Shown here one piece after another: positions 13,515-45,469 of a DNA stretch of 64,000 bases. The notes under the pieces are model-generated. The model was given only the letters and a program-made list of their open reading frames with translations, did not search any database and was not told the origin of the DNA. The stretch lies in NCBI GenBank assembly GCA_964016885.1, contig OZ024740.1, positions 343,790,001-343,854,000 on the forward strand, read 5' to 3'. Position numbers and translations under genes: made by a program. How positions within the stretch are numbered: the stretch's first letter is position 1; each line of letters begins with the position of its first letter. The DNA comes from Eledone cirrhosa. Lineage: Eukaryota.

Positions 13515-13868
13515 GAGGCATAGAGTTACGGCCATTTACCTTATGTGTTCAAATCTCGCCGATGTTAGCTTTGCCTTTCATCTTCATGCGGTTGACAAAA
13601 TATAGTACCAGTCATGCACTGGTTTGATCTAATCGACTTTCCCCTCCCTCCAAATTGCTGGTCTTGTACCTATAGTAGAAATCATTTTCAATTGGCAGTA
13701 TCGGTAGAGGGTCGGACGCCATTCTTTCCAGCATAGTTACATCCCTTTACGGTCTGAGTTCAAATCCCGTCAAGGTTAACTTTGCCTTTCATCCTTACGG
13801 GGTCGATAAAATAAAGTACCAGTAATGCACTGCATAATTGCTGGTCTTGTGCCAAAATTAGAAACAAT
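13515..13868 (+). mobile_element. Two tandem SINE copies (long then short form)
   Basis: Same head, core and tail as the other copies. Confidence 0.85.
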
Positions 13869-14213
13869 TATTTTCATGTTCATATGTATGTGTGTCTGAA
13901 ATGTAGATATTTGTATGTGTCTCTAATAATTTAATCTTTTTAAATATATCTATTTTCTCTTTCTCCTTTACTTCTGATAATGGTTACGTGCCCGCCACCC
14001 CATATCAACTGTATTATATTCCTTCTGGGTTTCACTCTGGCACTTATTGAACTTGCTGCGTACACTTGTCCTTAGCCCCTTTCTCGTCTTATTGACTCCC
14101 TTGATTATCCACCCAACTGGTGATTAAAAGGTCATAAATCTTTTTAGCGCAATTTGTCTTCTCCAGCTACTAAAAATGATTATGATAAATAGATGAGCCT
14201 AGTTTGACCACAA

Positions 14214-16320: not shown

Positions 16321-17270
16321 TGGGAGGGTCCAGGGGGCAGTGTCTGCAAGCACGCCTTCTAGCAGGTCTTGTCAGAAGCAACTATCTCCAGTTAATCCGG
16401 CTCGATCCACACGTGATCAGCCGAGCTCATAGATATATTCCGACCATCCTGGTTGGGATTTACCCGTAAGTTTCCTGGCGGCTGATTTAGCTTCTAGATC
16501 TGTCCAGCGATTCAGCCCTGAGACACTCTCCCTACATTTTCATAGTATTCGAGAAGTAGCAGCTCTACATGGAGTGACTCTCTGATCTTTGAACAACGCA
16601 CTATATCAACTAAACTTACTCCTGAGACCATTCGGGGAACACCATTTCTGTCAGTTGTATTCAAAATCGTATTCTTTCAGTCATTATGCAAGACACATGA
16701 CCATTGGTGAATATTGGCACGAATACCGAATTGAAGATAGTGAGTTTGGCTTTTACACCTACCTCCTTTCTTCTGATGATCAAATGCTGAAGCTGGCGCA
16801 TAACTGCTCCAACTACTGCAAATCCTGCACTCAACTCAGCCTCCTGCCTCCCATAAATCCTGACCATAGCTCCGAGATTCTTGAAGTTTTCCAAGTGCTT
16901 CAGTCGTACTCGACTTACATTTAGAGTGTATTGCCCAGGCTTCCTTGAGAGGATATGTCAATTAATCTTCGCACCACTGATTTTCATTCGGGTCGTGCAG
17001 CATTCGGCATCATACCTATCAAGTGCAGGTCGGAGATTAGTTTTTGACGAGTTAAATAATATAATGTCATCTGCAAATTCCAGTCGACTGATCTTACACC
17101 TACCAGACTCTATATCCCTTTCAACACGACTGCGCACGTCAATTTTGTCCATGAAGATCGTGGACGAGAGCGACGAGAGTACGCACCCTTGGCATAGTCC
17201 GACAATAACATTGAATGGTTTCGCGGAATAACAAGATACACGTTTAAGCCTTAGGTAGAATGGTTGTTCG
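16321..17270 (-). mobile_element. 5'-truncated, degenerate RTE-clade LINE (RT C-terminal half)
   Basis: GLCQGCVLS, LEFADDIILF, MKISGAK, ENFKNLG, KAKLTIFNSVFVPIFT. Frameshifts and stops. (GAA)n tail. Confidence 0.8.
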
Positions 17271-18035
17271 AAAATATATTTCAGTTTCCACCCAACGCTG
17301 CAAGAACTGGCAGTGGGCCTGTAACTTGTCCTGGGAGGCATGTGATGGAAGTCCAAAAGTTACATATTCCGAGACGCCAGAGAGGGTCTGCTAGGCTCTT
17401 GTTGAGTTAAGAAGAGTGCTGGCATTATGGAACTGAAAACAAAGTGTAAATTTAAAGGCAGCAAATATAAAACGTTTCCCACAGGAGTGTTTGTTACAAA
17501 ACCAAATCGGTTGAGGTGTGGTATGTGTGTGTATTCTACAAAATTATTTGAAATTTAGGTACGTCCCAGAAGGACTGAGAACAATTGTGGGAGCGATGTC
17601 CAATGTGTTTACTTTTTAGATGGTAGTCATGATAGTAGAAATTTTGGCAGTGGGTAAAGCTACTACGATAATGAAGACGTATCAATTTATTCATTGATAA
17701 TAGGATGTTATCCTTCGAAGCACCGTTATAGGGCTGTGGTGTGCGGAAAATTTCCTTTTATTTGAAACATTAAATAGATGGAAACAACAAACTTCTCGAA
17801 ATACAAACTAATGTTATAAATTCATCGCTTCTATTTTTGTTTTCTTAATTTAATCAATCAAACGACACTTGGAATGTAATTGTGAATTTGTTCACGGTTA
17901 TATATTTGTCTGTAAACTTAATGTACTTATAACATATACATTTTAAAACATTCCTATCATAACTCCTTTTGTTTTCTTTTATATTCTGAAGATGTACACA
18001 ATTTATCAATTCATATTCTGAAATAATTTGAATGC

Positions 18036-18094
<59 letters not shown>

Positions 18095-18472
18095 AAGTAG
18101 TAGTATTAGTAGTAGGATGTGGAGGAGGAAGAAGGGCAGGAAGAAGAAGGAGAGGAAGCAGAAGGGAGAGGAGGAGGGGTAGGAGAAGAGAAGTAGTGGT
18201 GATGGTGGTGGATGTAGTAGTAATTGTATTAGTAGTAAAAGTTGTAGTATATACAGTTAAATCAAATACACTCCTACCAACACCACCACCAGATTCCGAA
18301 GCCGCTACGTTGCCTCGCCATCACAAGCACTGTCACGCCTCACCGCCATCAACATCACCACAACATCCACTATCACCTTCACCACCACCACCAACATCCC
18401 CATCACCACCACCACTACCAAGAACAACAACAGCACCTCCAACAACAACAAACTACATCAATGAAATAAAAA

Positions 18473-18651
18473 TAATTGTTTCTACTTTAGGCACAAGGCC
18501 AGCAATTATCCAGTACATTACTGGTACTTTATTTTATCGACCCCGTAAGGATGAAAGGCAAAGTTAACCTCGACGGGATTTGAACTCAAACCGTAAAGGG
18601 ACGTAACTATGCTAGAAAGCATGGCGCCCAATCCTCTACTGATACTGCCAA
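18473..18651 (-). mobile_element. SINE, short form
   Basis: Head TGGCAGTATCAG...GAGTTCAAATCC, core and tail present. Confidence 0.9.
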
Positions 18652-18954
18652 ATAACGTCTGTAATAATAACAACCAAAGCCAGATCAACAATATTACAAA
18701 AAGAACACCAGTAGCATGAATATTAAGGATGCTGATGGTGACGAAGATGATAATATTTTATTAAAATACAAATTATAATTAAGCCATTACTATAACCTCA
18801 TCTTGTAAAGCCTTCATATTTTACGAAAGAGAGAAAAAGAAAATTTCAAAACGAAAAAAAAAAAAAAAAGCGAAGCAAACAGGAAAAGCTAGAGAAAGCA
18901 ACAGTAAAAACAAAAATGGTAAAAAGACAGAGCAAAAAGTAGCAGGAGCAAATG

Positions 18955-19030
<76 letters not shown>

Positions 19031-19044
19031 CAACAACAACAACA

Positions 19045-19081
<37 letters not shown>
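18955..19081. repeat. (AAT)n/(AAC)n microsatellite, 3' flank of the Tx1 element
   Basis: Direct reading. Confidence 0.95.
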
Positions 19082-19083
<2 letters not shown>

Positions 19084-19340
19084 TTTCATTTATTGGCCAC
19101 AAGGGCCGACATATAGGGGACAACACAATAGACAGGGACAGTGGGGGTTTACATAGAGATCGAGTAAGTATAAATAACAAAAAAACAAAAACAAAATAAC
19201 AATAAAAATACAACAATGAAAGTTCCCCAATAAGAGGTATCACCACCCAGGGTTGACTCAAGCACCCCACCAGTCCTGAGCCACCCGACGCTCCTAGGGC
19301 ACCCGGGAAGGGCACCCCTCTCCTTCTCGAATTCACCAGC

Positions 19341-22300
19341 CTACAGGCGCATGATCAGAGTAGGCCCACTCACGCGGGCCATTCTCGCCACATTCACCCA
19401 CCTTTCAGTAAATGTACTGGGGGGCAGCACTTCTCTCTCCACCCTCACCTTCCTTTCCAAGTGAAACTTGAAGAAGTTGATGAGGGATTGGCCGAAGAGA
19501 AAAGTGTCTGTCTTCAGTCCTTTCAACCTGGTCCACCATGCAACCTCTTTCGCTACTGCCACCAGGCAGAGGAAAATTGCCTGCCCTTCCTGACCAAAAG
19601 AAGGCGGCGGGTCAATCTTCACTATGGACTCGGACGATAGCCGGATCCGTTCTACACGCGACAATAGCTGTTCGACATAACCCCACAAGTCAGCAATGCA
19701 CGGACACTGGACGAGTGCGTGCAGAACGGTTTCGTCGCTCTGCGCGCATCTCGGGCAGGTTCGTCTGACAGCACTTCCGTGCCTGTAGAGTTTATCCCGA
19801 ACCGGCAGCGCCCCCCGGTAGCACTGCCAAGCGAGGGATTTCTGGAAGTTATCCATCGTCCCCGGCTCGAAAGTCCTCCGGAACATACTGGTCAGTTCTA
19901 CTTCGTTGACGCCCAGAGCCTCTCCTAGTACGTCATCGCACTTGCCCTCCACTAATCCTCTATAGAAATCTTGAGTGGAAGTTCCACTGACCGCATTGCC
20001 CACCTTGCAGAGTGCAGTGAGCGCCTGGCAACATTCCAGATGCCAGTCGCCCAGTCTCGGTCTCTTCTTGACCCAGGACTGCAGCTCAGTCAAAGAGATG
20101 AGCTGCGGAAAGGCCCGTCTAACAAACGGCGACCACACCTGTTCACCGTTTAGGCAAAATATCTGGAGATGTCGCAGCCTCAGCGCATGTCTGCGCATCA
20201 TTAGCCACGGCATGCCCAGCCCTCCACGAAGAGGGTGCTGGCAGCAGATGGACCGCCTCACCAACGGGACCCGTCCCCTCCACAAAAATTTGAAAAGGAG
20301 CCGTTCCAAATTGGCGAGGCGTGGACGGGGGCAAGGCACGACGGTCAGGCGGTAGTAGATGACGGACGCGATGTACGCGTTCGCCACCTCCGCCCGCCCT
20401 TTCAGTGATAGCTTTCTCTCAGCCCATTTCTGGGTGAGGTTGGCTATCCTGCTCGTCACCTCGTCCCAATTCTTATCCACCTGGAGGTCTGGTCCGAACC
20501 AAACCCCGAGCAACTTTACCGGTCCGTCTGTCCAGCGCCCAACGACGCTGTTGGACGGCATGGACTTGCCTCTCCAGGTGCCGAGCTGCAAGCCCACCGA
20601 CTTTTCCGGGTTAAGTTTTGCTCCCGTCAACTTTTCATATTCCTCCAAATGGGTGCGGATCACCTCGATTTCCGAGGTGTCCGACACCATCACGGTGATG
20701 TCGTCCGCATAAGCGGACGCAGCCTTTCTACGTCCCGGTTCGAGCGGGATGCCCTGCAACAACTCCAGCTTCCGCAGTAGAGGCTCAAGAGTCAATACGT
20801 ACAGAAGTGAGGAGAGAGGGCACCCTTGACGGACCGATCGAGAGATCTGAAACGGTTCCGAGAGGTGGCCATTAACTTTGACCACCGAGCGGATGCCGCT
20901 GTACATTGCAGCGATCCAGCTTCTGAAGACGGGGCCGAAGCCAGCCGCCTCGAGGACAGCCTCCAAGTACCGATGGTCGACCCTATCGAATGCTTTCGAT
21001 TGATCTAAATTGATCAGAGCCCCACCGAAGCCAGGTTTGCACCCAACCCTCTCTATGATGTATCGCATGAGGTGGAGGTTGTCGTGTATGGACCTGGTCG
21101 GGATTGCGCAAGTTTGCGCCTCCCCAACCAAATCTTTGACGACAAGCGCCAACCTTTTCGCTAACACCTTGGCCAAAATCTTAAACTCTGTGTTGAGCAG
21201 GGTTATGGGCCTGAAATTATCTAGTGTGTCCCTCTTGTTCTCGTCTTTCCTTATCAGCGTCACTACGCCACGGCTCACAGAACTGGGAATGCTCCCGTTC
21301 TGCTGCCAGTTGCAGTAGAGCGCTTCGAGGAGATCGGAGAACAAGTCTGGCATATTTACGTAAAGCTCGTAGGGCAGACCATCCAAACCGGGTGACTTGC
21401 GACTCGAGCAGCCGACAAGGGCGTCCTGAATTTCGGCTGATGTTATCGGCTCTTCGCAGCGCTCAGCGTCGGCCGTCGAGAGGCGTGGCAAGCCGTCGAG
21501 GTAGGGACTGAAGTCCGCCGCCATCTCCGACTCACCCATCCTCCCGAACAATCGAGCAAAGTGCTGGCGAAAGGCCTCACACATCCGCTTGGAATCGCTC
21601 AGTTCGTGTCCATCTCGATCCGTCAAAGACCGAATTGTGGTTTTATTTCCACGCTGCGTCTCTGCAAAGCGAGCCCATCGGGCAGCTTTGGTTCCCTCGT
21701 TCCTCAGAGCACGCGCCTTAGCTCTGACAATGCAACCTTCGTGTTTCGCATTGAAGAAATGGTCTAGTGCCATTCTCGCCGCTAGCACGTCTGTTGCAAT
21801 GCCACTACAAATAGCCTCGTCTAACTTAGCTATCAGCCCCTCCTCCTTTCTATTTTTCTCTATTGCTACTTCTTTGCTAAATCCTATCGAGGTTGCTCTA
21901 ATCTCTCTTTTGAGTGCCCCCCACCACCTGTTGTTGACAACCCCCCCTGTCAACTTTTGCTTAACTAAGTTGTTGACCCGGTCCCTGTAAGCTTTACGTG
22001 CCGGAAACGACATGTTTAGCTTCCAGTAGCTAGGTCCTAACCTACGTGTCTTATCTAGGTCGACCATACAGATCACAAGCTTGTGATCTGAATAGGCAAC
22101 CGTTTTAAAATGTGGACATCCTACACTATTTCTATCTCTTTTCCTAATGAAAATCCTATCTATGTACGATCTAGATGACCCTATGCGATTGGTCCAGGTC
22201 CATACTGGCGCATTAGGGAAATCTAGTCGGTACCTGTCAGACAGTTGAAACTGGCTGATCAGGTACTTGAGGCTTTTGCACCCCCCGCTCCTATCAGATA

Positions 22301-22760
22301 CTCCCACACAATCCCAGCGTGCTTCTAAGATGCCATTCCAATCCCCTATTAACAGTAAAGGGCGAGACGTAAGCAGAAAGTTTTCCAGGCGCCTAAAGAA
22401 GTCCGGCCGACCGGCCCCAGTAGGGGCGTAGACGGCCACCAGTCTAAAGGCACCACCTTCGCTATTGCTCACGTCCAGGACCACCAACTTTCCGTCAGGA
22501 TCCCGGAAGATTGACCTTACCTCGAGATCCAGACATTTCCTAAACAGCACAGCCACTCCACCTCCCATTCCCGGCCGACTAACAGATGCAAAGATCTGAT
22601 AATCGTCGAAAATCGGCGCCAGTGCGCGTGTGTCGGAAATTCTGGTCTCGCTGATGGCAATTACATCCATTCCTAGTGACCTGAGGTCGTTGAGCAAGTG
22701 ACCTTGCTTCCAGGGCGACCCCAGGCCACGAACATTTAAACTTCCTACTCTTATGGCCAT
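19341..22760 (-). CDS. ORF2: APE endonuclease, reverse transcriptase and C-terminal CCHC zinc finger (Tx1-like), 1139 aa
   Basis: APE motifs NVRGL, SET, VYAP, GDWN, IDR, SDH. RT motifs KSPGLDG, FRPITLLN, DQSKAFDRV, RQGCPLS, YADD. Zinc finger CPRC-x8-H-x4-C. Confidence 0.96.
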   Translation of the reverse strand: MAIRVGSLNVRGLGSPWKQGHLLNDLRSLGMDVIAISETRISDTRALAPIFDDYQIFASVSRPGMGGGVAVLFRKCLDLEVRSIFRDPDGKLVVLDVSNSEGGAFRLVAVYAPTGAGRPDFFRRLENFLLTSRPLLLIGDWNGILEARWDCVGVSDRSGGCKSLKYLISQFQLSDRYRLDFPNAPVWTWTNRIGSSRSYIDRIFIRKRDRNSVGCPHFKTVAYSDHKLVICMVDLDKTRRLGPSYWKLNMSFPARKAYRDRVNNLVKQKLTGGVVNNRWWGALKREIRATSIGFSKEVAIEKNRKEEGLIAKLDEAICSGIATDVLAARMALDHFFNAKHEGCIVRAKARALRNEGTKAARWARFAETQRGNKTTIRSLTDRDGHELSDSKRMCEAFRQHFARLFGRMGESEMAADFSPYLDGLPRLSTADAERCEEPITSAEIQDALVGCSSRKSPGLDGLPYELYVNMPDLFSDLLEALYCNWQQNGSIPSSVSRGVVTLIRKDENKRDTLDNFRPITLLNTEFKILAKVLAKRLALVVKDLVGEAQTCAIPTRSIHDNLHLMRYIIERVGCKPGFGGALINLDQSKAFDRVDHRYLEAVLEAAGFGPVFRSWIAAMYSGIRSVVKVNGHLSEPFQISRSVRQGCPLSSLLYVLTLEPLLRKLELLQGIPLEPGRRKAASAYADDITVMVSDTSEIEVIRTHLEEYEKLTGAKLNPEKSVGLQLGTWRGKSMPSNSVVGRWTDGPVKLLGVWFGPDLQVDKNWDEVTSRIANLTQKWAERKLSLKGRAEVANAYIASVIYYRLTVVPCPRPRLANLERLLFKFLWRGRVPLVRRSICCQHPLRGGLGMPWLMMRRHALRLRHLQIFCLNGEQVWSPFVRRAFPQLISLTELQSWVKKRPRLGDWHLECCQALTALCKVGNAVSGTSTQDFYRGLVEGKCDDVLGEALGVNEVELTSMFRRTFEPGTMDNFQKSLAWQCYRGALPVRDKLYRHGSAVRRTCPRCAQSDETVLHALVQCPCIADLWGYVEQLLSRVERIRLSSESIVKIDPPPSFGQEGQAIFLCLVAVAKEVAWWTRLKGLKTDTFLFGQSLINFFKFHLERKVRVEREVLPPSTFTERWVNVARMARVSGPTLIMRL

Positions 22761-22789
22761 GCTGGCAGGATGAATGGGAGAGGAAAGGT

Positions 22790-24700
22790 TTACTTACCTT
22801 CCGGGGTCTTGTGAAGGTCGGGTGGTTCGACCTCCATGGTTTGTGGGGTTTCTTTTGGGAACCCCTTTAATAGTCTTGACGTGGGTTTTACGTTCGGGGT
22901 TCCCACATCCCGAGGAAAGCTCTTTCGAATTTCTTTGTATGAAGCGAGCGACATTCGCATCAGAAGCAAATTATCTGGTACGCGAAATGTGCTCGCTTCA
23001 AATGTTTCCCCGTCTTTTTCGATGTTTGTGCTTCGTGCTACATGGGCCATCAATTCCTTGTTGGCCCTTCTGGCAAGCACGAAGTTTTTAATGTTTTGTT
23101 GCTCGGGTTTTATTTGTTCGTGTGATTGTGGTGGTGATAGCTTTGTTAGTGTTGTTTCTATTGTGTCTGCGTTTGTTGTGGGTGGGGTGTCTGTAGTTTC
23201 TGATGTTTGTGTGTCTATTTGTTCTTGTGTCTGTTTAGCTTGTTTGCGTTTGGGGGATTTTGGTGGTTGTGTTGGTGATGCTGTGGGGAAAATGTTTGTG
23301 TGGGTGGTGTGTGTATTTTTTTTTGTGGGGGTGTTTGTGCTTTGTGGATTTCTTTTTTTTTTGTGTTTTGTTTTTTGTATTTTGGGGGACTTTGGTTTTC
23401 CCTCATCTTCACTGCTGGAGGATGAGGGGTCTGTGGCTGTGAGCGTGTTTGTGTCTGAGTGAGTGTTTATGTTCTTGTTCGTGTGTGTATTTTGGGGGGG
23501 AGGGGGAATGGGAGAGCTTTCCTCGTTTCCCCCCTGGGTGTGCAATTTTGGTGGTTCCATTGTTGACGGTGTTGCTGGTGGTCCTTGTCCCGGCGTCGCC
23601 AGCAGTGGAATCTTTCGACCCCTTGCGCTTTTCGGCAGTTGAGGGCAGAAGGCTCGCAAGTGTGTCGTTTCCCCACAAAGGAAACAATGCGGCCTTTTGC
23701 CCTCAGTCATTATATGCAACACCCTCCCGTTTTGGAGGCGGATGTGGTCCGGGATTGTTTTTACGTTTTCGGGTCTGATTTGGAGCAGTATCTCCAGATC
23801 AACCCCGGACCAGTCGTCCCTGGCAGTTCTCGTTGCCTCTACCGGGACTGTATCCGTTCCTTCCACGATTACGCAACCCAGGAGCCACCACATATCAAGT
23901 CCTGGTGGAATCCTGGGAATGCGCACACGTGCTATTCGTTTTCCCATGTGGGAGGGGTACATTATGACCTTGCTGGTTTTGCAAGGGGTCATTGAATGCT
24001 TCACAGCGAGGGCTTCAGACTTGAACAGCACCGAAACGGTGCCGTATTGCCTGCCCCTCTCTATGAAGTCTGTGTCCTCTCTGATGTATTTCAGTGCGGC
24101 TTCTATGTCAGCTTGGGCGATTATCGCTGCCCTCTTTGTCTCTACTGAGATGCATCTGAAATGCACCGTTCTTTTTTCCACTGCCTCAATGGCTTCTGCC
24201 GGGACAGTTAAGTTTGCCCAGGTCTGCTCTTGATTTATGATTTTCCAGGCCTGGGCCAACTTTTCCTCTCTGTTGGTTAAGTCGATGCTGTAGCATGGTC
24301 TCCTTTTAGCCGCTGCCACAGCAGCGAAAGTGTTCTTGTTGGTGTTGTCACTGTTGTTGTTCTTGTTGGTGTTGCTGCTGCTATTGCTGTTGTTGTTCTC
24401 CCCTGTGTCGTGGTTACCCTCTGTGCTGTTGGCCTTGTTGGTGCTGCTGCTGTCGCTACTATTACTCTCTGTGCTGTTCGTTTTGTTGGTGCTCTCGCTA
24501 TTACCACCTTCTGCGCTGTTCGGCTTGTTGGTGTTGGTGTTGTCGCTGTTACCACCTTCCGCGCCGCTCGGCCCGTTGGTGCTGGCACTGTCGCTGCTCA
24601 CATTCGTGCTGGTGGCGCTCCTCGCCTCACCTCTCCTCTCAACGCTCAAGTCGCCGTTGCACGACAGCAGACCCGCCTCTAGGGGGCGTGGCTCCGCCAT
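22790..24700 (-). CDS. ORF1: gag-like nucleic-acid-binding protein with a CCHC zinc knuckle, 636 aa
   Basis: CFLCGETTHLRAFC (CX2CX4HX4C). S/N/T-rich N-terminus, P/T/K-rich linker. Lies just upstream of ORF2 on the same strand. Confidence 0.9.
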   Translation of the reverse strand: MAEPRPLEAGLLSCNGDLSVERRGEARSATSTNVSSDSASTNGPSGAEGGNSDNTNTNKPNSAEGGNSESTNKTNSTESNSSDSSSTNKANSTEGNHDTGENNNSNSSSNTNKNNNSDNTNKNTFAAVAAAKRRPCYSIDLTNREEKLAQAWKIINQEQTWANLTVPAEAIEAVEKRTVHFRCISVETKRAAIIAQADIEAALKYIREDTDFIERGRQYGTVSVLFKSEALAVKHSMTPCKTSKVIMYPSHMGKRIARVRIPRIPPGLDMWWLLGCVIVEGTDTVPVEATRTARDDWSGVDLEILLQIRPENVKTIPDHIRLQNGRVLHIMTEGKRPHCFLCGETTHLRAFCPQLPKSARGRKIPLLATPGQGPPATPSTMEPPKLHTQGGNEESSPIPPPPQNTHTNKNINTHSDTNTLTATDPSSSSSEDEGKPKSPKIQKTKHKKKRNPQSTNTPTKKNTHTTHTNIFPTASPTQPPKSPKRKQAKQTQEQIDTQTSETTDTPPTTNADTIETTLTKLSPPQSHEQIKPEQQNIKNFVLARRANKELMAHVARSTNIEKDGETFEASTFRVPDNLLLMRMSLASYKEIRKSFPRDVGTPNVKPTSRLLKGFPKETPQTMEVEPPDLHKTPEGK

Positions 24701-24910
24701 GTTTTTTTGAGAAAAAAATTATTATTTTTTTTCAAAATAAAGTTCAAATATTTGGGCCAAAAGGCCCAAATATTATGAGTTATTCCTTCACAGGATACAA
24801 ATTAATGTCTTATAATGCTTCAGCGGTACAAAAAATAAACAATTCTCTACAATTAATCCTCAAAAATTGCTTACTCACGGAGCTTCAAAAAACGTACATC
24901 CACTATCGTC

Positions 24911-24941
<31 letters not shown>

Positions 24942-24985
24942 GTAATAATAATAACAACAACAATAACGACGACTACAATAATAAC
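24911..24985. repeat. (AAT)n microsatellite, 5' flank of the Tx1 element
   Basis: (AAT)10 starts at 24911, then decays. Confidence 0.95.
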
Positions 24986-26728
24986 CAGAAGAATAATAGT
25001 AGTTCGTTCTAAATTTCAAATTCTATATGGATTGTAGATTTATCGATAAATTAAGTCGTTAAATTATTGCAGAGCAAATATTATTTACATAATATCTTTG
25101 TCTATCTAAATTGACTTAACCTTAGCACAACATCTTTTAATGTTTACTTTATTTTCTATCTTTTCTTCATTCTTTGTCTTTCTTTGCCTGCTTATTTATT
25201 TATTTATGTATTTATTTATTTATTTATTTATTCTATTTATTTATTTATTTTATTTATTTATTTATTTATTTATTCTGTTTTCTTTCTTGTTTTTGATTTT
25301 TTCTATTTTGAATAATATTGTAATATTGCAAATAATTATGCAGGATGAATGAATTAAAGGTGGTTAGATGAGGTTAGGTGTTAAGATATTCGTGTATAGT
25401 ATGTGTTTGTAAACGTATGTTTATATATGAATGTCTATTGGTTAGAGGTTGTGTATGTGTATGTTTATAGAAGCATTGTGTGCATGTAAATGTGTGTATT
25501 GAAATATGTACGCCTGAGCTTGGTGTGTGTGGAGTATTTGTATGAAGTGAAGAGAATGATTGTAGCAAAATTATATAGAATACATATTTGTATATTATGT
25601 ATGTATGTATTTGCACACACGCACACACACACATATATATATAGACACTTATATATATAGACACTTATAGACATATATGTATATCTATATATATATATTT
25701 ATATGTATACATACATACTTACACACACGCACACACACATATATGTGTTTATATATATATGTGTTTATATATATATATATACACATACAAATACACATAA
25801 AATTAGTTGCGTCTATTTGGTATTTTTTTTTTCTTTCATTTGCGAATTTTTGAATTTTAATAAGCTGTTGAGAAGATTTTAATTCAATGGTTTACTAATG
25901 TAGTTTGCTCTCCAACTTATTGAGATGTATCATTATCATCGGATTTATTGTATACAGGTGTCTAACGTGAAGGTGTAAACATAATTTACAGCTTTAATCT
26001 ACAACTGTCTGGCTGTTCAGATGGTTTGTCTCTGTGAAATTTCTCTGTAGACTTGAAAATGTTTGACGCGACATTTGCAACTTAGATGTCTGATCATATA
26101 TGTGGAAAGTAAGGAGAAGGCGATATTTCACGTTTGCTTTAATAAAGCAAGAGAACTACACTGAAGAGTTGAAATAAGTTAGAAACGTATGCAACGTATG
26201 CGGTGAATTGTCAGAGTTGCTAGAGCCTACGACAAAATACCTTGAAGCATTAATTTCTGCTTGCTGCAGTTTGTGTGCGAAATTTCGCCGAGTTCAACTT
26301 TTACTTTCATCCTCCCGGTGTCGATAAAATAAAGAGTTCGTCCAAAATGGTGGATTGACTCTATCATTGGATGCGATAACATGTGCATCCATGTAACACA
26401 TCCCATGTGGCAGCCCGATATAAGTATTATAAATTAATCAATGATATTTTTCCAGAATTATATGAAGTGTGATATTACCATATGAGAATTTGGAGGAAAT
26501 GCTACGATAGCATGCTATTGTAAAGGTTTGGACAAAAAAAGGTAAAGAAAAAGAAACAAACATAAAAAAGCAACGGAGAGAGAGAGGGAGAGGGGGGAGG
26601 CAGAAAGAGGCATGAGAGAAATGATGTCATATGATACATACACGCATGCGTACACAGGCAGGCAAATACCGAAGTATGTTCATTTCTATAATAGTCAATC
26701 CATTTATCCAACCATATTATCAGCCAAG

Positions 26729-26784
<56 letters not shown>

Positions 26785-27789
26785 CCCTCTGGCAGGCGGA
26801 TCCGGTTATCAGTGGAGACTCCACCGCAACATTCTATAGAGGGCTGGTACGCAGCAGGTGCGACGACGCCCTCGGAGAAGCCCTAGACATGGAGGAGGAC
26901 GAACTGGCCGGCCTGTTCGGTAGGACATTCAACCCGGGACCTATGGACAACTTCCAGAAGTCCCTGGCCTGGCAGTGCTACCGAGGAGCTTTACCCGTTC
27001 GAGAAAGGCTCTACAGACACGGGCGCCCGGGTAGGGACCCCGCCAAAAAGATCTGTCCCAGATGCGTGTGCGACAAGGAAACCGTTGCACACGCATTGGT
27101 ACACTGCTCGGGCGTAGCCGATCTGTGGGGCTATGTCGAACAACTGCTGTCAAGGGTGGGACCGATCCGGTTGACCACCGAGTCTATTGTAATGATCAAG
27201 CCGCCTCCTCCCTTCAAAGATGAAGCAGAGGCGGTGTTTTTGTGCGTAATAGCCATGGCGAAAGAGGTTGTATGGTGGACGCGTCTGAAAGGACTGAGGT
27301 CAGGCACCTTTCTCTCTGGCCAACAACTGGTCCGTTTCTTCCGATATCATTTCGGAAGAAGGATCAGGATGGAGAGAGAGGTGCTGCACCCCAGTCGTTT
27401 TTATGAAAGGTGGGTGAAAGTGGCGAGAATGGCCCGTGTGAATGGGCCTTCTCTTTACATGAGCCTGTAGGTGGAAAAGAGGAAGGAACGAGGGAGCACC
27501 CCCTCTCTGTGCTCCTGAGGAAAAGGGTTGCACACTTTTTTCGGGGGTGTGTGCGACCCCCCAAGGCGCCTCCTCCCTATTGAGGATTTTGTTATAAATT
27601 TTATTTTTTGTTATATTTTATAACAAAATCCTCTATTAAGGATTTTGTTATAATTCTATTTTTTGTTATATTTTATTTTATTTTTATATATTGTTATTGC
27701 CTTCTCCCTATTGAGGACGCCTTGTTTTGTAAACTCCCCCCATTGTACTTGTCCCACTTTTGATGCCCTTGTGGCAAATAAAAGAAACA

Positions 27790-27790
<1 letters not shown>
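26785..27790 (+). mobile_element. 5'-truncated Tx1-like LINE, sister family B (ORF2 C-terminus and 3'UTR), bounded by (ATCT)n
   Basis: The peptide FYRGLV..CDDALGEAL...MDNFQKSLAWQCYRGALPVR...CPRC..ETVAHALVHC...VARMARVNGPSL aligns with the end of the 1139-aa ORF2. Stop at 27470. Confidence 0.92.
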
Positions 27791-27856
<66 letters not shown>

Positions 27857-27897
27857 ACATCTATCTATCTATCTATCTATCTATTTATCTATCTATC
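27791..27897. repeat. (ATCT)n between the two family-B copies; a further (ATCT)14 lies at 26729-26784
   Basis: Direct reading. Confidence 0.95.
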
Positions 27898-28447
27898 CTC
27901 CCCTCTTCAAAAACGAAGGAGATGCGGTGTTTCTGTGCGTAATAGCCATGGTGAAAGAGGTTGTATGGTGGACGCGTCTGAAAGAACTGAGGTCAGACAC
28001 CTTTCTCTCTGGCCAACAACTTGTCCATTTCTTCCGATATTATTTCGGAAGAAGGATCAGGATGGAGAGAGAGGTACTGCACCCCAGCCGTTTTTATGAA
28101 AGATGGGAGAAAGTGGCGAGAATGGCCCGTGTGAATGGGCCTTCGCTCTACATCAGACTGTAGGTGAGAAAGATGAAAGATAAAGGGACCACCTTCTCTC
28201 TGTGCTCCTGAGGAGAAGGGTTACACACTTTTTTCGGGGTGTGTGTGCGACCCCCCAAGGCGCCTCTTCCCTATTGAGGATTTTGTTATTCAATTTATTT
28301 TTGTTATATTTTATATTTTTATATTTTTATATTTTGTTATTGCCTCCTCCTTATTGAGGACGCCTTTTTATTTACATAAAAAGGCGTCCTCAATAAGGAG
28401 GAGGCATTGTACTCTTTGATGCCCTGGTGGCAAATAAAAAGAAAGTT
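27898..28447 (+). mobile_element. Second, shorter 5'-truncated family-B Tx1 copy, followed by (ATCT)3
   Basis: AVFLCVIAMVKEVVWWTRLK...VNGPSLYIRL. The 3'UTR is homologous to 27471-27790. Confidence 0.9.
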
Positions 28448-29249
28448 ATCTATCTATCTATATATGAATTTCTCTCCTCTTTCTTTACACACACACGGCC
28501 AAACACACACACACACTCAAACACACACATACACATACACACACATCTGTGTGTATGTAGGAAATAACTCTAGCTGTGAACATAAATAATATATATAAAT
28601 GTATATATTTCGTACGTTTCCATTTCATTTGTATATACTGTATATATATATATATATGTATGTATATATATAAAGAGAATAATATACAAATGTATTGAAA
28701 ACGTCATATGAAATGTATACATTGACGCATACAAACATACACAGACTCATACATGCATACATATATACACAGACTCATACATACATACCTACCTACATAC
28801 ATACATCTATACATACTTACAGTGCTGGTTATAGTTAATTGGCTGCAGCATTAAGATAGTGTTAAGCGTATTAGGTGTGTATGACAGTATATACCATGTT
28901 TGAGGGTCTTGTCATTAAAGAAAATAATTGTTTCGCTATGAAAAAATATCTTTTCGCTCAGTGAACATGTAATAGCTACCTCAGTAGCCGTCAGAATACC
29001 AGACAACTATTTTAAGTTTCGCTAATCTCTAATTAGTGGCATTCATTCACCGGTTCTGAGATTAAAATAGACTAAAGTCTATATAGATTTTTGCCTGGTG
29101 GACATTTGCTTGAGATGCTCATTTTAATACAGCAAATAGAAAACATTGCTAGAAATACAAAAAAAACAAAACAAAATAAAAAACGTATGCACGAACACAT
29201 ATATAAAACCAAAAGCATGCGTATTTCCCACTGTTGTTATAATGCTGGC

Positions 29250-31869: not shown

Positions 31870-34750
31870 CAGATTAAAGTTTAAGCAAATAATCGCTGCT
31901 TTCACCCTTAACGGGATCTTCTGAAACTAACAAAGTCAATCTGTAAACGCAGAAGTGGATATTTAAAAAAACGTTGCAACCGGAGGAAGACAGGAAGACG
32001 ATACTTTGGTTCGTGGAAACGCTCGCTGGCAAAGAACGGGAAAAAACGAATATAATACGTCATTAATAGGAGCGGTGAAAAACAATTACGCGCAAAGATA
32101 GAACCACGTTTATGGTATAAAAGAGGTCGTAGACTAATGTTCTCTTAGGTGGTTCATAGAGACGTTCTCTGGCAATGAACGAAAAAAAAAACGAAGATAA
32201 TACGTCATATGTGGAGCGTGGAGAATAATAGCACGCAAAGACAAAACCACGTAAATGGTATAGCAGAAGTCGTAGACTAAAATTCTAACTAGGAGACCGA
32301 ATGAATCTCCGCTTCAGAGTTAGGAACAAAGTAAATAAATACAATACAGAAGTAATAGAAATAAATAAATACATACACGCAAACAAATACGTACATACAC
32401 AAGCATACGCAGAACACTTACCGTCGGTATACAAAACCACGCACATATAAATATGTGTGTGTGTGTATGCGTGTATACAAATAAATAAATAATTATATAA
32501 ACGTATATAAATAAATAAATACGTATATAACAAGCGCACACACATACCTACATGTAAATACACGAATGTTCGGAGACGTAAGTCAACCAAAACATGAAGT
32601 ACACATATACACACACCCTACATACGTACGAACCAGCATACTCACACAGACGCAAAACTCCTGTATACACATAGCCAAACCATATGTACCAGAATATATA
32701 AAATTATACGCCATAACATAAACAATCAAATTTACGTATGAGAAGGTATACGTACCTTCACAAAACATACGGGTAAAATATACTTACCTATGCAAATAAG
32801 TAATGGTATAAACAAAACATACTTAGCTCCCACATCAAGACGTAAAATATCCACGTATAAATCGTACTATCCGTTAGGGTATAACGTGGGGCTGTAATAC
32901 AGGAAAGTTTTGTGCAATTTATGTTTACAAGCCGAAATTGCCTCAGATTTTTTGTTTAAGATGTGGTCTGTGGCGTAGAGTATTTCCAGGGCCTCAGCGG
33001 CGCAGAGGTCACATGGTCTTTTATTTCCGTTATATGATCTAGCCCTAGCTAGGATCTCCCAGTGTAACTTATATTGGGTGTGGTTGTCTTTTAGACTCCA
33101 GATATAAGCTGAAAGTGACGTCATATTCCTTCTTAGAGGGTAACGAAAAGAATGGGTATGCATGTAAAGACGCTGCTTGAATCTATTGGCGGTTAACCCT
33201 ATGTAGGCCCTACGGGACGTGGGTGTTACAACCTTACATATGTAGACAATGTTACAGGGAGGCATTTCCCGGATAGGGGGCAATCAACCCAATTCCTACA
33301 ATTACAGTTAGTACTAACTACAGGGTTGCACGTGTTCCTACGGCCAGGCAGTTTAGATAAATTTGAAGCTGTGATGTTATGTGCATGGTTAGGAGTCGTA
33401 GAGTAAGAAATTTTAATAGTATTTCTATAAAAAATTTTACTATACTTATGTGTAGGGGGAAAATGCTTCGTAATAAGGGAAAGAAAGATCTTAGCTAATG
33501 GTGTGGCCACCTCCATATGATATGGTGGATTATACCAACAAATGCGACGGGATCTATTTCTTCTAGGTCTATTTTTGTACTCTGTATATGCTACCTTATC
33601 GACAAATCCACTTCGAGCAAGAGCTTCATTGTAATAAGTGGAATGGTCGTTGAAAATACGCTCATTGATGGAAAGACGGGAAAACCTCAACGAAACGTTT
33701 CTTACCAGGTTCTTGGTTATGCTGGCAGGATGGTTGGAATGCTTACTTATGTAATTAAGCGTATCATTCGGCTTTCTATACGGGTAATACAACCCATTCA
33801 ATAAATTGAGGGTAACGTCGAGGTAATTAACGACTGAGAGATTGGCCTCAACCTGTATAGAGAGGTTGAAGCCTTTAAAGAAGGCTGTGAGTTCTTTTCT
33901 GAACCTGTCGCACGCACGAGGTCCGCACTTAGTCATGGTCAAAAGACCATCGTCACGGTACAAACCACCGCCCGCGTTGGGGAATTCGTCCTTGGTAGAG
34001 GAAAGAAGGAAAAGGCCGATAAGATCAGTATCTCCGCAGAATCACTGGCGCCCATACTCACGTCGAATGGGGTACTATTGGATTTTTAATCCAAATAGAG
34101 TCGTCGAAATTAATCACCGACTTTCGGGCATTGAGGATGACATCAACTTCGAAATCCTTAACCACTGTGAGTGTTTTAGCGAAATTGATACCTCTAAGGA
34201 GAAGTGGTAAAGTGATGGAGGAGTAGTAATTGTTGATGTCGAATTGGATAAAACGGCAATGTTCCTTGTTACATATGCCGTTGAACCAATCAATCACCGC
34301 GAAAGAATTGTTCCATAGTGCAAGAGGGGCCAAAATTCTAATTTCAGGTATAATTCTATCAAGAATCGTTTTACTAAGTCTACCTAAATCGGACTTCGTA
34401 GGGTTAATAAGCCGATGATGGTATAAAAGAGATCGTAGACTAATGTTCTCTTAGGTGGTTCATAGAGACGTTCTCTAGCAATGAACGACAAAAACGAAGA
34501 TAATACGTCACATGTGGAGCGTGGAGAACAATAGCACGCAAAGACAAAACCACGTAAATGGTATAGCAGAAGTCGTAGACTAAAATTCTAACTAGGAGAC
34601 CGAATGAATCTCCGCTACAGAGTTAAGAACAAAGTAAATAAATACAATACAGAAGTAATAGAAATAAATAAATACCTACACGCAAACAAATACGTACATA
34701 CACAAGCATACGCAGAACACTTACCATCGGTATACAAAACCACGCACATT
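31870..34750 (-). mobile_element. Penelope-like element of Naiad type, 5'-truncated, with tandem pLTR
   Basis: RT plus GIY-YIG coding remnant. 34418-34748 is a direct repeat of 32112-32445. Confidence 0.88.
32867..34414 (-). pseudogene. Frameshifted PLE ORF: RT, CxC-x5-CP-x2-G-x-C linker and GIY-YIG endonuclease
   Basis: RLINPTKSDLG, QFDINNYYSSI, FDVSMGASDSAEI, GLYRDDGL, NYLDVTL, SNHP, WYNPP, CNCRNWVDCPLSGKC, IVY..YIG..FKQR..H, CDLCAAE, LNKKSE..CKH. About three frameshifts. Confidence 0.9.
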
Positions 34751-37688: not shown

Positions 37689-37794
37689 CTCTCACTCCCT
37701 CTCTCTCTCTCTCTCAATCTCACTGTTTGTCTTTATATATATATATAGCAAAGTTGAAAAAAAAAACGAAATATATATAGACATACACACGCAC

Positions 37795-39241
<1,447 letters not shown>

Positions 39242-40130
39242 TGGCCATGGAAAGCATACATTTTCTTTAATGACTAGGCTCATCATGTTGTCAGTCAAGA
39301 CTTGCCACTTCCCGTGGTGTAGACACTGGCGAAGAAAGCGGAAGCAACCGGAACTAATGTTGATTTAAGCTTCACTGCACATTTCGGTCAATATTTTAAT
39401 AGCTTAAATCACAATTTCTCAATTTCGGAAATACATGTGAGCACACTCAAATATTCACACACACAAATGTATATACATAAACACAGCCACATGTGCATGT
39501 ACGTATGTGTGTTAGTGCGTTTATGCCTGTATGTGAGTGTGTGTGTGTGTGTATGTGCATGAAATGCCTAGTTGATTATTACCGCTGATGTAGTGTAATT
39601 TCATTAGATTCTTCTTCTTCTTCTTCTTCTTCTTCTACTTCTTCTTCTCCTTGTCATCCTCGCTGGTTCTTCCTTTAATTGTAAAAATTGATCGCATTCT
39701 TCTGGACGGTATTTAGGCAGGGACTATATATTATAATAAATTAGCATCCGTTAATGAATGGCTTAGAAAGGACGTTCACAAACGTACGTACGTACATACA
39801 CACACATATACACACACACGCACTAACATACACACACACACATGCACACATACAACCATGCATACAAAGAGAACGTTGCCAATAGAAATAGGAAATACTG
39901 TTTCATTGTAACAAATAAATGAAAAACGGCAGCTATTCTACCTTCTAATTTGGTTTTAATGCAATGGTTAGAAAATAGGATAAGTATAAGATAGGATACA
40001 TCGTATTAATTAAATCGTCACTCAAGTGTAATGTCAAATATCTGAAATGATTTCTCTTAGGGTGATCTATCTATTTTGTAATGTTCAATAACAACCATAA
40101 CGAGACCAACAGCATAACAAATATAATAAT

Positions 40131-43085: not shown

Positions 43086-43410
43086 CAATCAAACATAAAA
43101 AAAATCATTCAGATATAATTAAGTAAAGATAATAATTCTGATTCCACTCAATTAAAAAATAAATTCCACAGTAAATGAGGGCAACTTTATGTAATCTCAG
43201 TCGCTAAACGGCAATTTAAATCGACATAAGCTCCGGTTTGATATGCCTCTAAGCTTGAAAGAGTCGTTGATTTCATATCTATTGTTCAAAAGTTTTATAG
43301 AATTAATATCCAACACCATTGAATATGGGATCTCGTATCTTTCAAAAGGACAGTTATTTTTTTATTTATGTAAGGAGAAATGTACAGTAAAGGTATTCCC
43401 GAAATAATCC

Positions 43411-43602
43411 AATAATTGTTTCTACTTTAGGCACAAGGCCAGCAATTACCCAGTGCATTACTGGTACTTTATTTTATCGACCCCGTAAGGATGAAAGGCA
43501 AAGTCAACCTCGGCGGGATTTGAACTCAGATCGTAAAGGGACGTAACTATGCTGGAAAGCATGGCGTCCGACCCTCTACCGATACTGCCATTCCACCGCC
43601 CT
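43411..43602 (-). mobile_element. Full-length short-form SINE with 13-bp TSD ATAATCCAATAAT
   Basis: TSD at 43404-43416 and 43603-43615. A and B boxes intact. Confidence 0.93.
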
Positions 43603-45212: not shown

Positions 45213-45280
45213 GCGCATACACGTATATAGAAAGAGCGGTGCGTGTATATATATAAGAATCATAAAGAATATTAAAAATA

Positions 45281-45469
45281 ATTGTTTCTACTTTAGGCAC
45301 AAGGCCAGCAAATTACCCAGTGCATTACTGGTACTTTATTTTATCGACCCCGTAAGGATGAAAGGCAAAGTCAACCTCGGCGGGATTTGAACTCAGATCG
45401 TAAAGGGACGTAACTATGCTGGAAAGCATGGCGTCCGACCCTCTACCGATACTGCCAATCCACCGCCCT
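45281..45469 (-). mobile_element. Full-length short-form SINE with 13-bp TSD TATTAAAAATAAT
   Basis: TSD at 45270-45282 and 45470-45482. Nearly identical to the 43.4 kb copy. Confidence 0.93.

Follow-up and report, generated by a model that had tools for sequence, protein, structure and literature searches.

The young, related LINE families of Eledone cirrhosa (genome size 3.0 Gb) are almost confined, family by family, to (ATT)n, to (ATCT)n or to a fixed site in a DNA transposon. We consider it probable that these families, likely of the Tx1 type, insert at different short motifs, likely through differences in the sites nicked by their APE endonucleases. Coordinates without a contig name refer to the stretch of 64,000 nucleotides that was analysed (the window).

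LINE copies in the window

Element A (19082-24910, minus strand) belongs to the (ATT)n group and, at 5.83 kb, is a full-length LINE. Its ORF1 (22790-24700, minus strand) encodes 636 amino acids with a CX2CX4HX4C knuckle, and its ORF2 (19341-22760, minus strand) encodes 1139 amino acids that include an APE endonuclease, a reverse transcriptase and a zf-RVT domain (Pfam PF03372, PF00078 and PF13966). Both reading frames are intact. The flanking (ATT)n repeats detected by TRF, also on the minus strand, are at 18951-19081 (3' flank, partly interrupted by GTT) and 24911-24966 (5' flank).

The ORF1 protein has no Pfam match at E 0.01; its look-alikes in a protein atlas (0.90-0.93) are CCHC or ZCCHC3-type RNA-binding proteins, which are treated as a lead. 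With L1 and R2 alone as the comparison set, the best solved relative of the ORF2 protein is L1 ORF2p (residues 4-853, E 2.6e-57), with R2 at 5e-22. The N-terminal APE domain, the reverse transcriptase, the C-terminal zinc domain and the greater closeness to L1 are those of an APE-type LINE of the L1 group, as are the variable 5' truncation, fixed 3' end and target duplications of the copies. The ORF2 of a B copy (L044) has the same Pfam domains, with zf-RVT slightly below the cut-off. A structure prediction for the A endonuclease from four sequences reached a pLDDT of 52 and was left unused. Elsewhere in the genome, ten full-length A heads lie about 5.84 kb apart in a head-to-tail array of about 58 kb (G000:C1:423367675-423420172), which could be either a series of insertions or a later amplification.

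The 5' end of element A lies 1.9 kb from B1, a 5'-truncated LINE copy on the opposite strand. B1 is 1006 bp long (26785-27790) and represents the last ~1.0 kb of an element of ~5.7 kb. It is preceded by (ATCT)14 (26729-26784) and followed by about 27 ATCT units (27791-27896), which also form the 5' flank of B2, a 551-bp 5'-truncated copy of a sister subfamily with the end AAAAAGAAAGTT (27897-28447). B2 is followed by (ATCT)3 plus ATAT (28448-28463). All of these features are on the plus strand, and the two longer repeats are identified both from the sequence and by TRF. The coordinates bear out the first-pass annotation, which described two differently truncated copies between (ATCT)n tracts, except that the final flank is short, since only (ATCT)3 and ATAT come after B2. 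Because the 5' repeat of B2 is the 3' flank of B1, the window alone offers three, not four, independent flanks. Chance is ruled out as the origin of the repeat flanks: among random 40-mers from the rest of the window, a 12-bp ATCT run occurs in 0 of 5000 and an ATT run in 0.2%.

B1 encodes 227 codons of the ORF2 C-terminus (zf-RVT match in Pfam, E 6e-6), up to a stop codon at 27468-27470 that is followed by the 3' UTR and a terminal motif with AATAAA. The similarity to element A previously remarked on in this C-terminus amounts to about 63% identity, and the 3' ends of A, B1 and B2 do have in common, as had also been proposed, the motif GCCCT(T/G)GTGGC(A/C)AATAAA..GAAA. B1 and B2 are 90.7% identical across 420 coding bases and differ in their 5' breakpoints. 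This level of identity, together with a terminal signature of the B2 subfamily that is found at 512 exact 3' ends genome-wide, identifies B2 as a separate, older insertion; copies 99% identical to B1 sit elsewhere, and the earlier reading of B2 as an independent insertion stands. A local tandem duplication of B1 as the source of B2 is ruled out by the subfamily end and the identity value. Most likely, B1 landed in the repeat on the 5' side of the older B2.

The genome contains 3548 candidate matches to B1, and all 40 that were scored are 99-100% identical; the scored samples for B1 and A are best hits and therefore represent the youngest copies. The 3' UTR of B2 has a short inverted duplication (28379-28400) in place of part of the normal sequence. 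There are no Rfam matches across 18500-29000. Other elements in the window include a broken Penelope-like element (32867-34450, minus strand; by eye, a reverse transcriptase and then a GIY-YIG-like frame), a reverse transcriptase fragment of another LINE type that is RTE-like by eye (16857-17359, minus strand) and an almost pure (AT)n tract of about 1.5 kb (37758-39270).

Insertion sites across the genome

A genome search found 355 exact full-length heads of family B and 317 of family A. The 5' flanks were counted in the first 30 heads per family in genome order, with a 12-bp run required within 40 bp upstream. An ATCT run precedes 28 of the 30 B heads and an ATT run none, and an ATT run precedes 29 of the 30 A heads and an ATCT run none. 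The division between (ATT)n and (ATCT)n that had been proposed from the window is thus real and reciprocal genome-wide. The presence of 5' (ATCT)n at family-B copies elsewhere, on which that proposal depended, extends to truncated B1 copies: 15 of 20 have an upstream ATCT run, 0 of 20 an ATT run, and the 20 copies have 20 distinct breakpoints. Four of these 20 have no 12-bp ATCT run at either side. Under a stricter rule (an 8-bp run ending no more than 6 bp from the head), ATT is found at 30 of 30 A heads and ATCT at 17 of 30 B heads, the lower figure arising because short extra bases often lie between repeat and head. About 11 of the 30 heads of each family are directly behind another element, and the readable ones are of the same target group.

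On the 3' side, 0 of 133 ATCT-group ends begin ATTATT and 0 of 79 ATT-group ends begin ATCTATCT. The common terminal motif has 16,813 genome occurrences (control, 0). Reverse-strand counts of this motif are inflated by double matches, and the forward strand was used: its 8405 motifs are followed by ATCTAT in 3522 cases (42%) and by ATTATT in 2790 (33%). The remaining 25% are degenerate sites, the third family described below, or rarer targets that have not been seen; no further microsatellite target was found in the pattern-sampled ends examined (30 loci and 40 further regions). The older B2 subfamily is looser: ATCT runs of 8 bp are present at 16 of its 30 3' flanks and at only 4 of 17 apparent 5' junctions, several of the 17 being internal deletions. 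The target is present in more than 20% of flanks, the preference that serves as a criterion for the Tx1 clade in the available text of PMC4494074.

A very abundant SINE of ~185 bp carries the ATT signature. Its copies in the window include 45267-45467, 43403-43600 and 18465-18651 (minus strand) and 13691-13872 (plus strand), with 16 more hits. The SINE has A and B boxes that we take to be tRNA-like, and its last ~25 bases are similar to the LINE terminus. Flanks begin ATTAT in 59 of 72 copies. Non-periodic duplications of 9-20 bp are found in 33 copies, against at most 8 bp in shuffled pairs. In 28 of 31 insertions a pyrimidine precedes the duplication, which places insertion at Y|ATTAT. Judged by these features, the SINE is a likely partner of the ATT group; mobilization instead by another LINE clade with an ATT target is possible.

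A third family inserts into a MITE

The first-pass annotation had advised looking for relatives with other repeat targets, and family C is such a relative: its target is a 72-bp repeat inside a MITE. Family C was first seen in 4 of the first 30 ends and has 51 exact ends genome-wide. In all 30 C ends examined, the same phase of the 72-bp repeat comes next, and the flank begins CTCTATA. The 72-bp unit has 27,009 exact 34-bp matches genome-wide. An empty copy of the host at L231 is 741 bp long and reads TTAA|CCCTTTAGCATTTA...TAAATGCTAAAGGG|TTAA. It has the marks of a MITE, namely TTAA at both sides, terminal inverted repeats that start from CCC, and no coding capacity; from the TTAA and the CCC-start ends, the host is presumably of the piggyBac type. 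MITEs with an internal 72-bp tandem array were observed at L231 and L211-L230, on many contigs.

At the same 17 of 30 loci (arm of at least 100 bp), similarity is 84.7% among the MITE arms and 98.4% among the C ends. Full-length C copies are 96.0% alike. A truncated C copy at L228 has its own duplication of ~76 bp, another truncated copy is 309 bp long, and tandem C copies occur at two loci. On these comparisons, C entered older MITEs independently. A 64-bp duplication was considered for full-length C and rejected, because the upstream and downstream units differ by eye. The C flank retains a TCTAT core, and the cut register could be either Y|ACTCT or A|CTCT. Many C copies at L217-L230 retain both ends and have large internal deletions, which are commoner than in A or B.

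Relationships of the families

In the tree, the ATCT families fall into a single clade (SH-aLRT 99) and the ATT families into two further lineages, so that A and B are cousins, not sisters. A and B are 69.5% identical in ORF2, 61% in the endonuclease and 80% in the reverse transcriptase. They belong to two multi-family groups and, at these ORF2 and endonuclease identities, are separated by many changes, so the earlier description of them as sister or close families has to be abandoned. In support of their proposed suitability for mapping specificity, ORF2 is intact in 11 of 20 full-length A copies and in 10 of 20 full-length B copies. Family C is nested within the ATCT clade (100/100) with 82-86% ORF2 identity, and the branch that names its nearest ATCT family has support of 46/62. 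The switch of C within the ATCT group is thus a closer one than that between A and B.

Mapped on the tree, the targets follow its branching with four changes, the smallest number possible. The joint monophyly of the two ATT lineages lacks resolution in the rooted tree, which comes from a quick search with eight ~40% homologues as outgroup; its rows were projected from copies that are in part frameshifted. Of the two microsatellite targets, ATT may be the older.

Outside relatives include P0001 at 78%, and P0002 and others at about 42%. No named Tx1 protein is among the 120 homologues listed or their clusters. ORF1 proteins of the Tx1 clade have RNA-binding domains and a CCHC knuckle, unlike mammalian L1 ORF1, and the knuckle of A ORF1 is such a feature. 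The A/B/C radiation is likely to belong to the Tx1 clade. Its targets are ATT, ATCT and the 72-bp unit instead of the (TC)n, (TTC)n or related pyrimidine tract of the Kibi/Koshi lineage.

Endonuclease loops

In the L1-DNA structure, according to the available text of PMC8565326, the only base contacts are made by the loops at the Pro197 and Asn118 sites. The alignment to L1 ORF2p is gap-free over the hairpin, and residue 193 of the present elements corresponds to Pro197 and residue 114 to Asn118. A comparison of the DNA-contacting loops of A and B, as had been recommended, reveals a difference at the hairpin tip: six of the seven ATT-group rows have I or V at residue 193, and the ATCT and C rows that cover this residue have S. 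The C hairpin loop is the same as in its ATCT relatives. Between C and the nearest ATCT family, 6 of 26 endonuclease differences fall within residues 114-121, where the L1 Asn118-type loop changes from SGTPRPDF to FWAARPEY in C; the tryptophan at 115 is absent from every other family sampled. B-group and C endonucleases are 76-85% identical.

The loop-target connection is a candidate, being a correlation across three groups, and the loop matching L1 residues 117-120 is likewise a candidate for the change behind the target of C. Only tentatively do we suggest that C recently moved, almost completely, from a microsatellite target to one phase inside a DNA transposon through a rewrite of the Asn118 loop while the hairpin stayed fixed. 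Loop grafts in L1 had a partial effect on nicking and failed to confer the specificity of Tx1L (available text of PMC1950540).

Target choice and the origin of the repeat flanks

Degenerate arrays (ACCT, ATCTGT, AGT) continue on both sides of insertions. Where the flank is non-periodic, target duplications are roughly 13-20 bp long, with locus-specific bases duplicated over 18-20 bp at L362, about 15 at L361 and L352, 13 at L374 and 16-18 at L393. Several B-group copies occur at a lone ATCT, ACCT or ATAT with an array on neither side. The lone sites, the arrays on both sides and the duplicated bases all point to a short core as the recognized site, with microsatellites as its densest supply. 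The B target is thus a short core, Y|ATCT, that is used outside microsatellites too.

Among 20 full-length B copies, arrays are on both sides of 15 and on neither side of 2, with 2 ambiguous cases and one de novo (ATCT)5. The last of these, at L352, consists of the 15-bp duplication and then an added CC(ATCT)5 inside a 32-bp minisatellite, with no ATCT elsewhere in the 420 and 330 minisatellite bases examined. Two independent B insertions lie at the same phase of a 49-bp minisatellite that contains no ATCT (L393, L394 and L339; G000:C1:108.72-108.83 Mb), and one of them was later duplicated locally (L393/L394). The later insertion is 99.5% identical to a distant copy versus 99.0% to its neighbour, which favours direct recognition over the flank of a local donor. 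Full-length B copies at two unrelated loci, L333 and L335, are preceded by a 5' repeat with an identical variant end, ATCT followed by two GTCT units; this variant suggests that the upstream flank travels with the RNA.

In the mechanism that we consider probable, targets would be family-specific likely because the DNA-cutting APE domains differ. The endonuclease would nick the bottom strand at a T/purine step in the family motif, which on the top strand would be Y|ATTAT for group A and Y|ATCT or Y|ATMT for group B. This nick would prime reverse transcription, probably with a few RNA-DNA base pairs assisting. As the motif recurs every 3-4 bases in microsatellites, these would be targeted most, and since each insertion would divide an array and duplicate part of it, elements of the same group would pile up in tandem. 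Family C would have arisen within the ATCT group and would now be restricted to the MITE repeat. Takahashi and Fujiwara reportedly found in 2002 that endonuclease swapping moved specificity in SART1/TRAS1.

The absence of poly(A) from all 245 distinct 3' junctions could also mean that the RNA itself carries a memory of the target. AATAAA lies 7-10 bases before the element end, so transcripts would end inside the donor flank, and this flank would pair with the nicked target; the endonucleases could then be fairly permissive, and a switch such as that of C could occur with no change in protein. Such pairing would fit the first four flank bases at B1 ends, which are ATCT at 97-100% per position, also at non-repeat sites, and the phase fidelity of C (30/30) with its hairpin unchanged. 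The extra (ATCT)5 at the 5' junction of L352 indicates that flank repeats can travel with an element, and downstream-target pairing is reported for R1Bm and SART1 in the available text of PMC7265360. However, the SINE ends in A, so the pyrimidine before its duplication is not set by pairing, and junctions beginning ACCT, ATAT or GTT match the target and not the RNA. The repeated use of the non-ATCT minisatellite is not parent-daughter, which weighs slightly in the same direction. We regard a target memory in the RNA, the main alternative, as unlikely overall; that RNA-DNA pairing may be the main selector counts against the endonuclease mechanism. It is very improbable that the repeats are tails made by the elements, with 5' repeats due to chance, duplication or earlier tails. 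Consistent with tails are the clear de novo (ATCT)5 at L352, a probable gain of (ATT)n at L130, a 12-bp run restricted to the 5' side in 3 of 20 full-length B copies and in 2 of 20 full-length A copies, and the duplication of part of the array by every insertion. Yet a 3' array is absent in many B-group copies (it is shorter than 8 bp at 14 of 30 B2 ends, and there is none at L339, L373, L374, L378 and L393), and these copies rule out an obligatory (ATCT)n tail. The flanks also continue pre-existing degenerate arrays, and ~17,000 ends would be a small number beside the microsatellites of a 3-Gb genome, to judge from 249 TRF rows in the window. The first-pass suggestion that these elements seed microsatellites thus goes mostly unsupported: away from repeats, B-group copies usually arrive without (ATCT)n, and seeding is clear in one case among 20 full-length B copies.

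Random insertion followed by retention in repeats, with B2 as a local duplication and C as a hitchhiker in its MITE, is largely refuted, and we give it hardly any credence. The genome is very repeat-rich, local duplication of inserted copies does occur (L393/L394), all 13 exact full-length C heads have one common junction, and many C copies have internal deletions, as such a process might produce. It would leave unexplained the reciprocal exclusion in young, 99%-identical copies, the fixed phase and strand of the junctions and the subfamily end of B2. Hitchhiking as the sole cause of the C pattern is also contradicted by the gap in divergence between C ends and the far older MITE arms, and by the separately truncated and tandem C copies.

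Relation to known elements

Teleost Tx1 elements divide microsatellites, Kibi using (TC)n and Koshi (TTC)n, and a crocodilian Tx1 group uses (TTCC)n/(TTTC)n (available text of PMC4494074 and PMC3812793). Like Kibi and Koshi, related APE-type LINEs here divide microsatellites among themselves. The targets in this case are instead (ATT)n and (ATCT)n. At least three ATT and at least eight ATCT families coexist in this genome, unlike in the Kibi/Koshi system, and some have 99%-identical copies with intact ORFs.

The available text of PMC4494074 also describes Tx1L of Xenopus, which inserts in the non-autonomous piggyBac element Tx1D, and a crocodilian SINEU that has its target in common with Tx1-Mar. 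Family C resembles Tx1L in targeting a non-autonomous, TTAA-flanked DNA transposon, and the SINE resembles SINEU in having the target of group A. Unlike Tx1L, C is nested, at the ORF2 identity given above, in a group that targets microsatellites, and its target is a 72-bp tandem unit inside the transposon, similar to the ATCT core (TCTAT). The putative T/purine nick and the length of the duplications are like those of human L1. In contrast to human L1, these elements have no poly(A) tail, a CCHC-type ORF1, a zf-RVT C-terminus and much narrower targets, and the hairpin is TNRIGSS or ANRSGSS in place of FSAPHHT.

Dong is an R4-type element with a restriction-like endonuclease, and Waldo and Mino are R1-type elements. 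These non-LTR elements insert into microsatellites as well, namely TAA (Dong), ACAY (Waldo) and AC (Mino), according to the available text of PMC3812793. Dong has the same triplet class of target as group A; all three belong to other clades, and their switches are not homologous to those described here.

A 2026 annotation of Octopus vulgaris lists 13 recently active L1-Tx1 families, and the word "target" is absent from its available text (PMC13282606). Our literature search found no report of ATT- or ATCT-targeting Tx1 elements in cephalopods or other invertebrates, or of such a LINE radiation in one invertebrate genome; Repbase entries may list such families. The partition of microsatellites by Tx1 relatives, the targeting of piggyBac (Tx1L) and the partner SINE (SINEU) are already described. 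What appears new is the targets and the radiation within one invertebrate genome.

Implications

How APE-type LINEs choose their targets is still an open question, with partial results from L1 grafts (available text of PMC1950540) and few base contacts (available text of PMC8565326). Known target-specific pairs are usually distant in sequence. Here, one genome contains intact and very young A and B families and the closer B-group/C pair, each with tens to thousands of natural sites. The question of specificity thereby narrows to a handful of residues and an exchange experiment, which is relevant to the engineering of site-specific retrotransposons. The findings explain why LINEs are stacked in tandem within microsatellites and, probably, where the very abundant SINE inserts; they also temper the view that these LINEs create microsatellites. 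If the tentative account of family C is true, the Asn118 loop would be a transplantable specificity module for APE retrotransposons, and retargeting would possibly be locked in by flank sequence carried in the RNA. The A, B and C families would be a natural test set for insertion-site choice.
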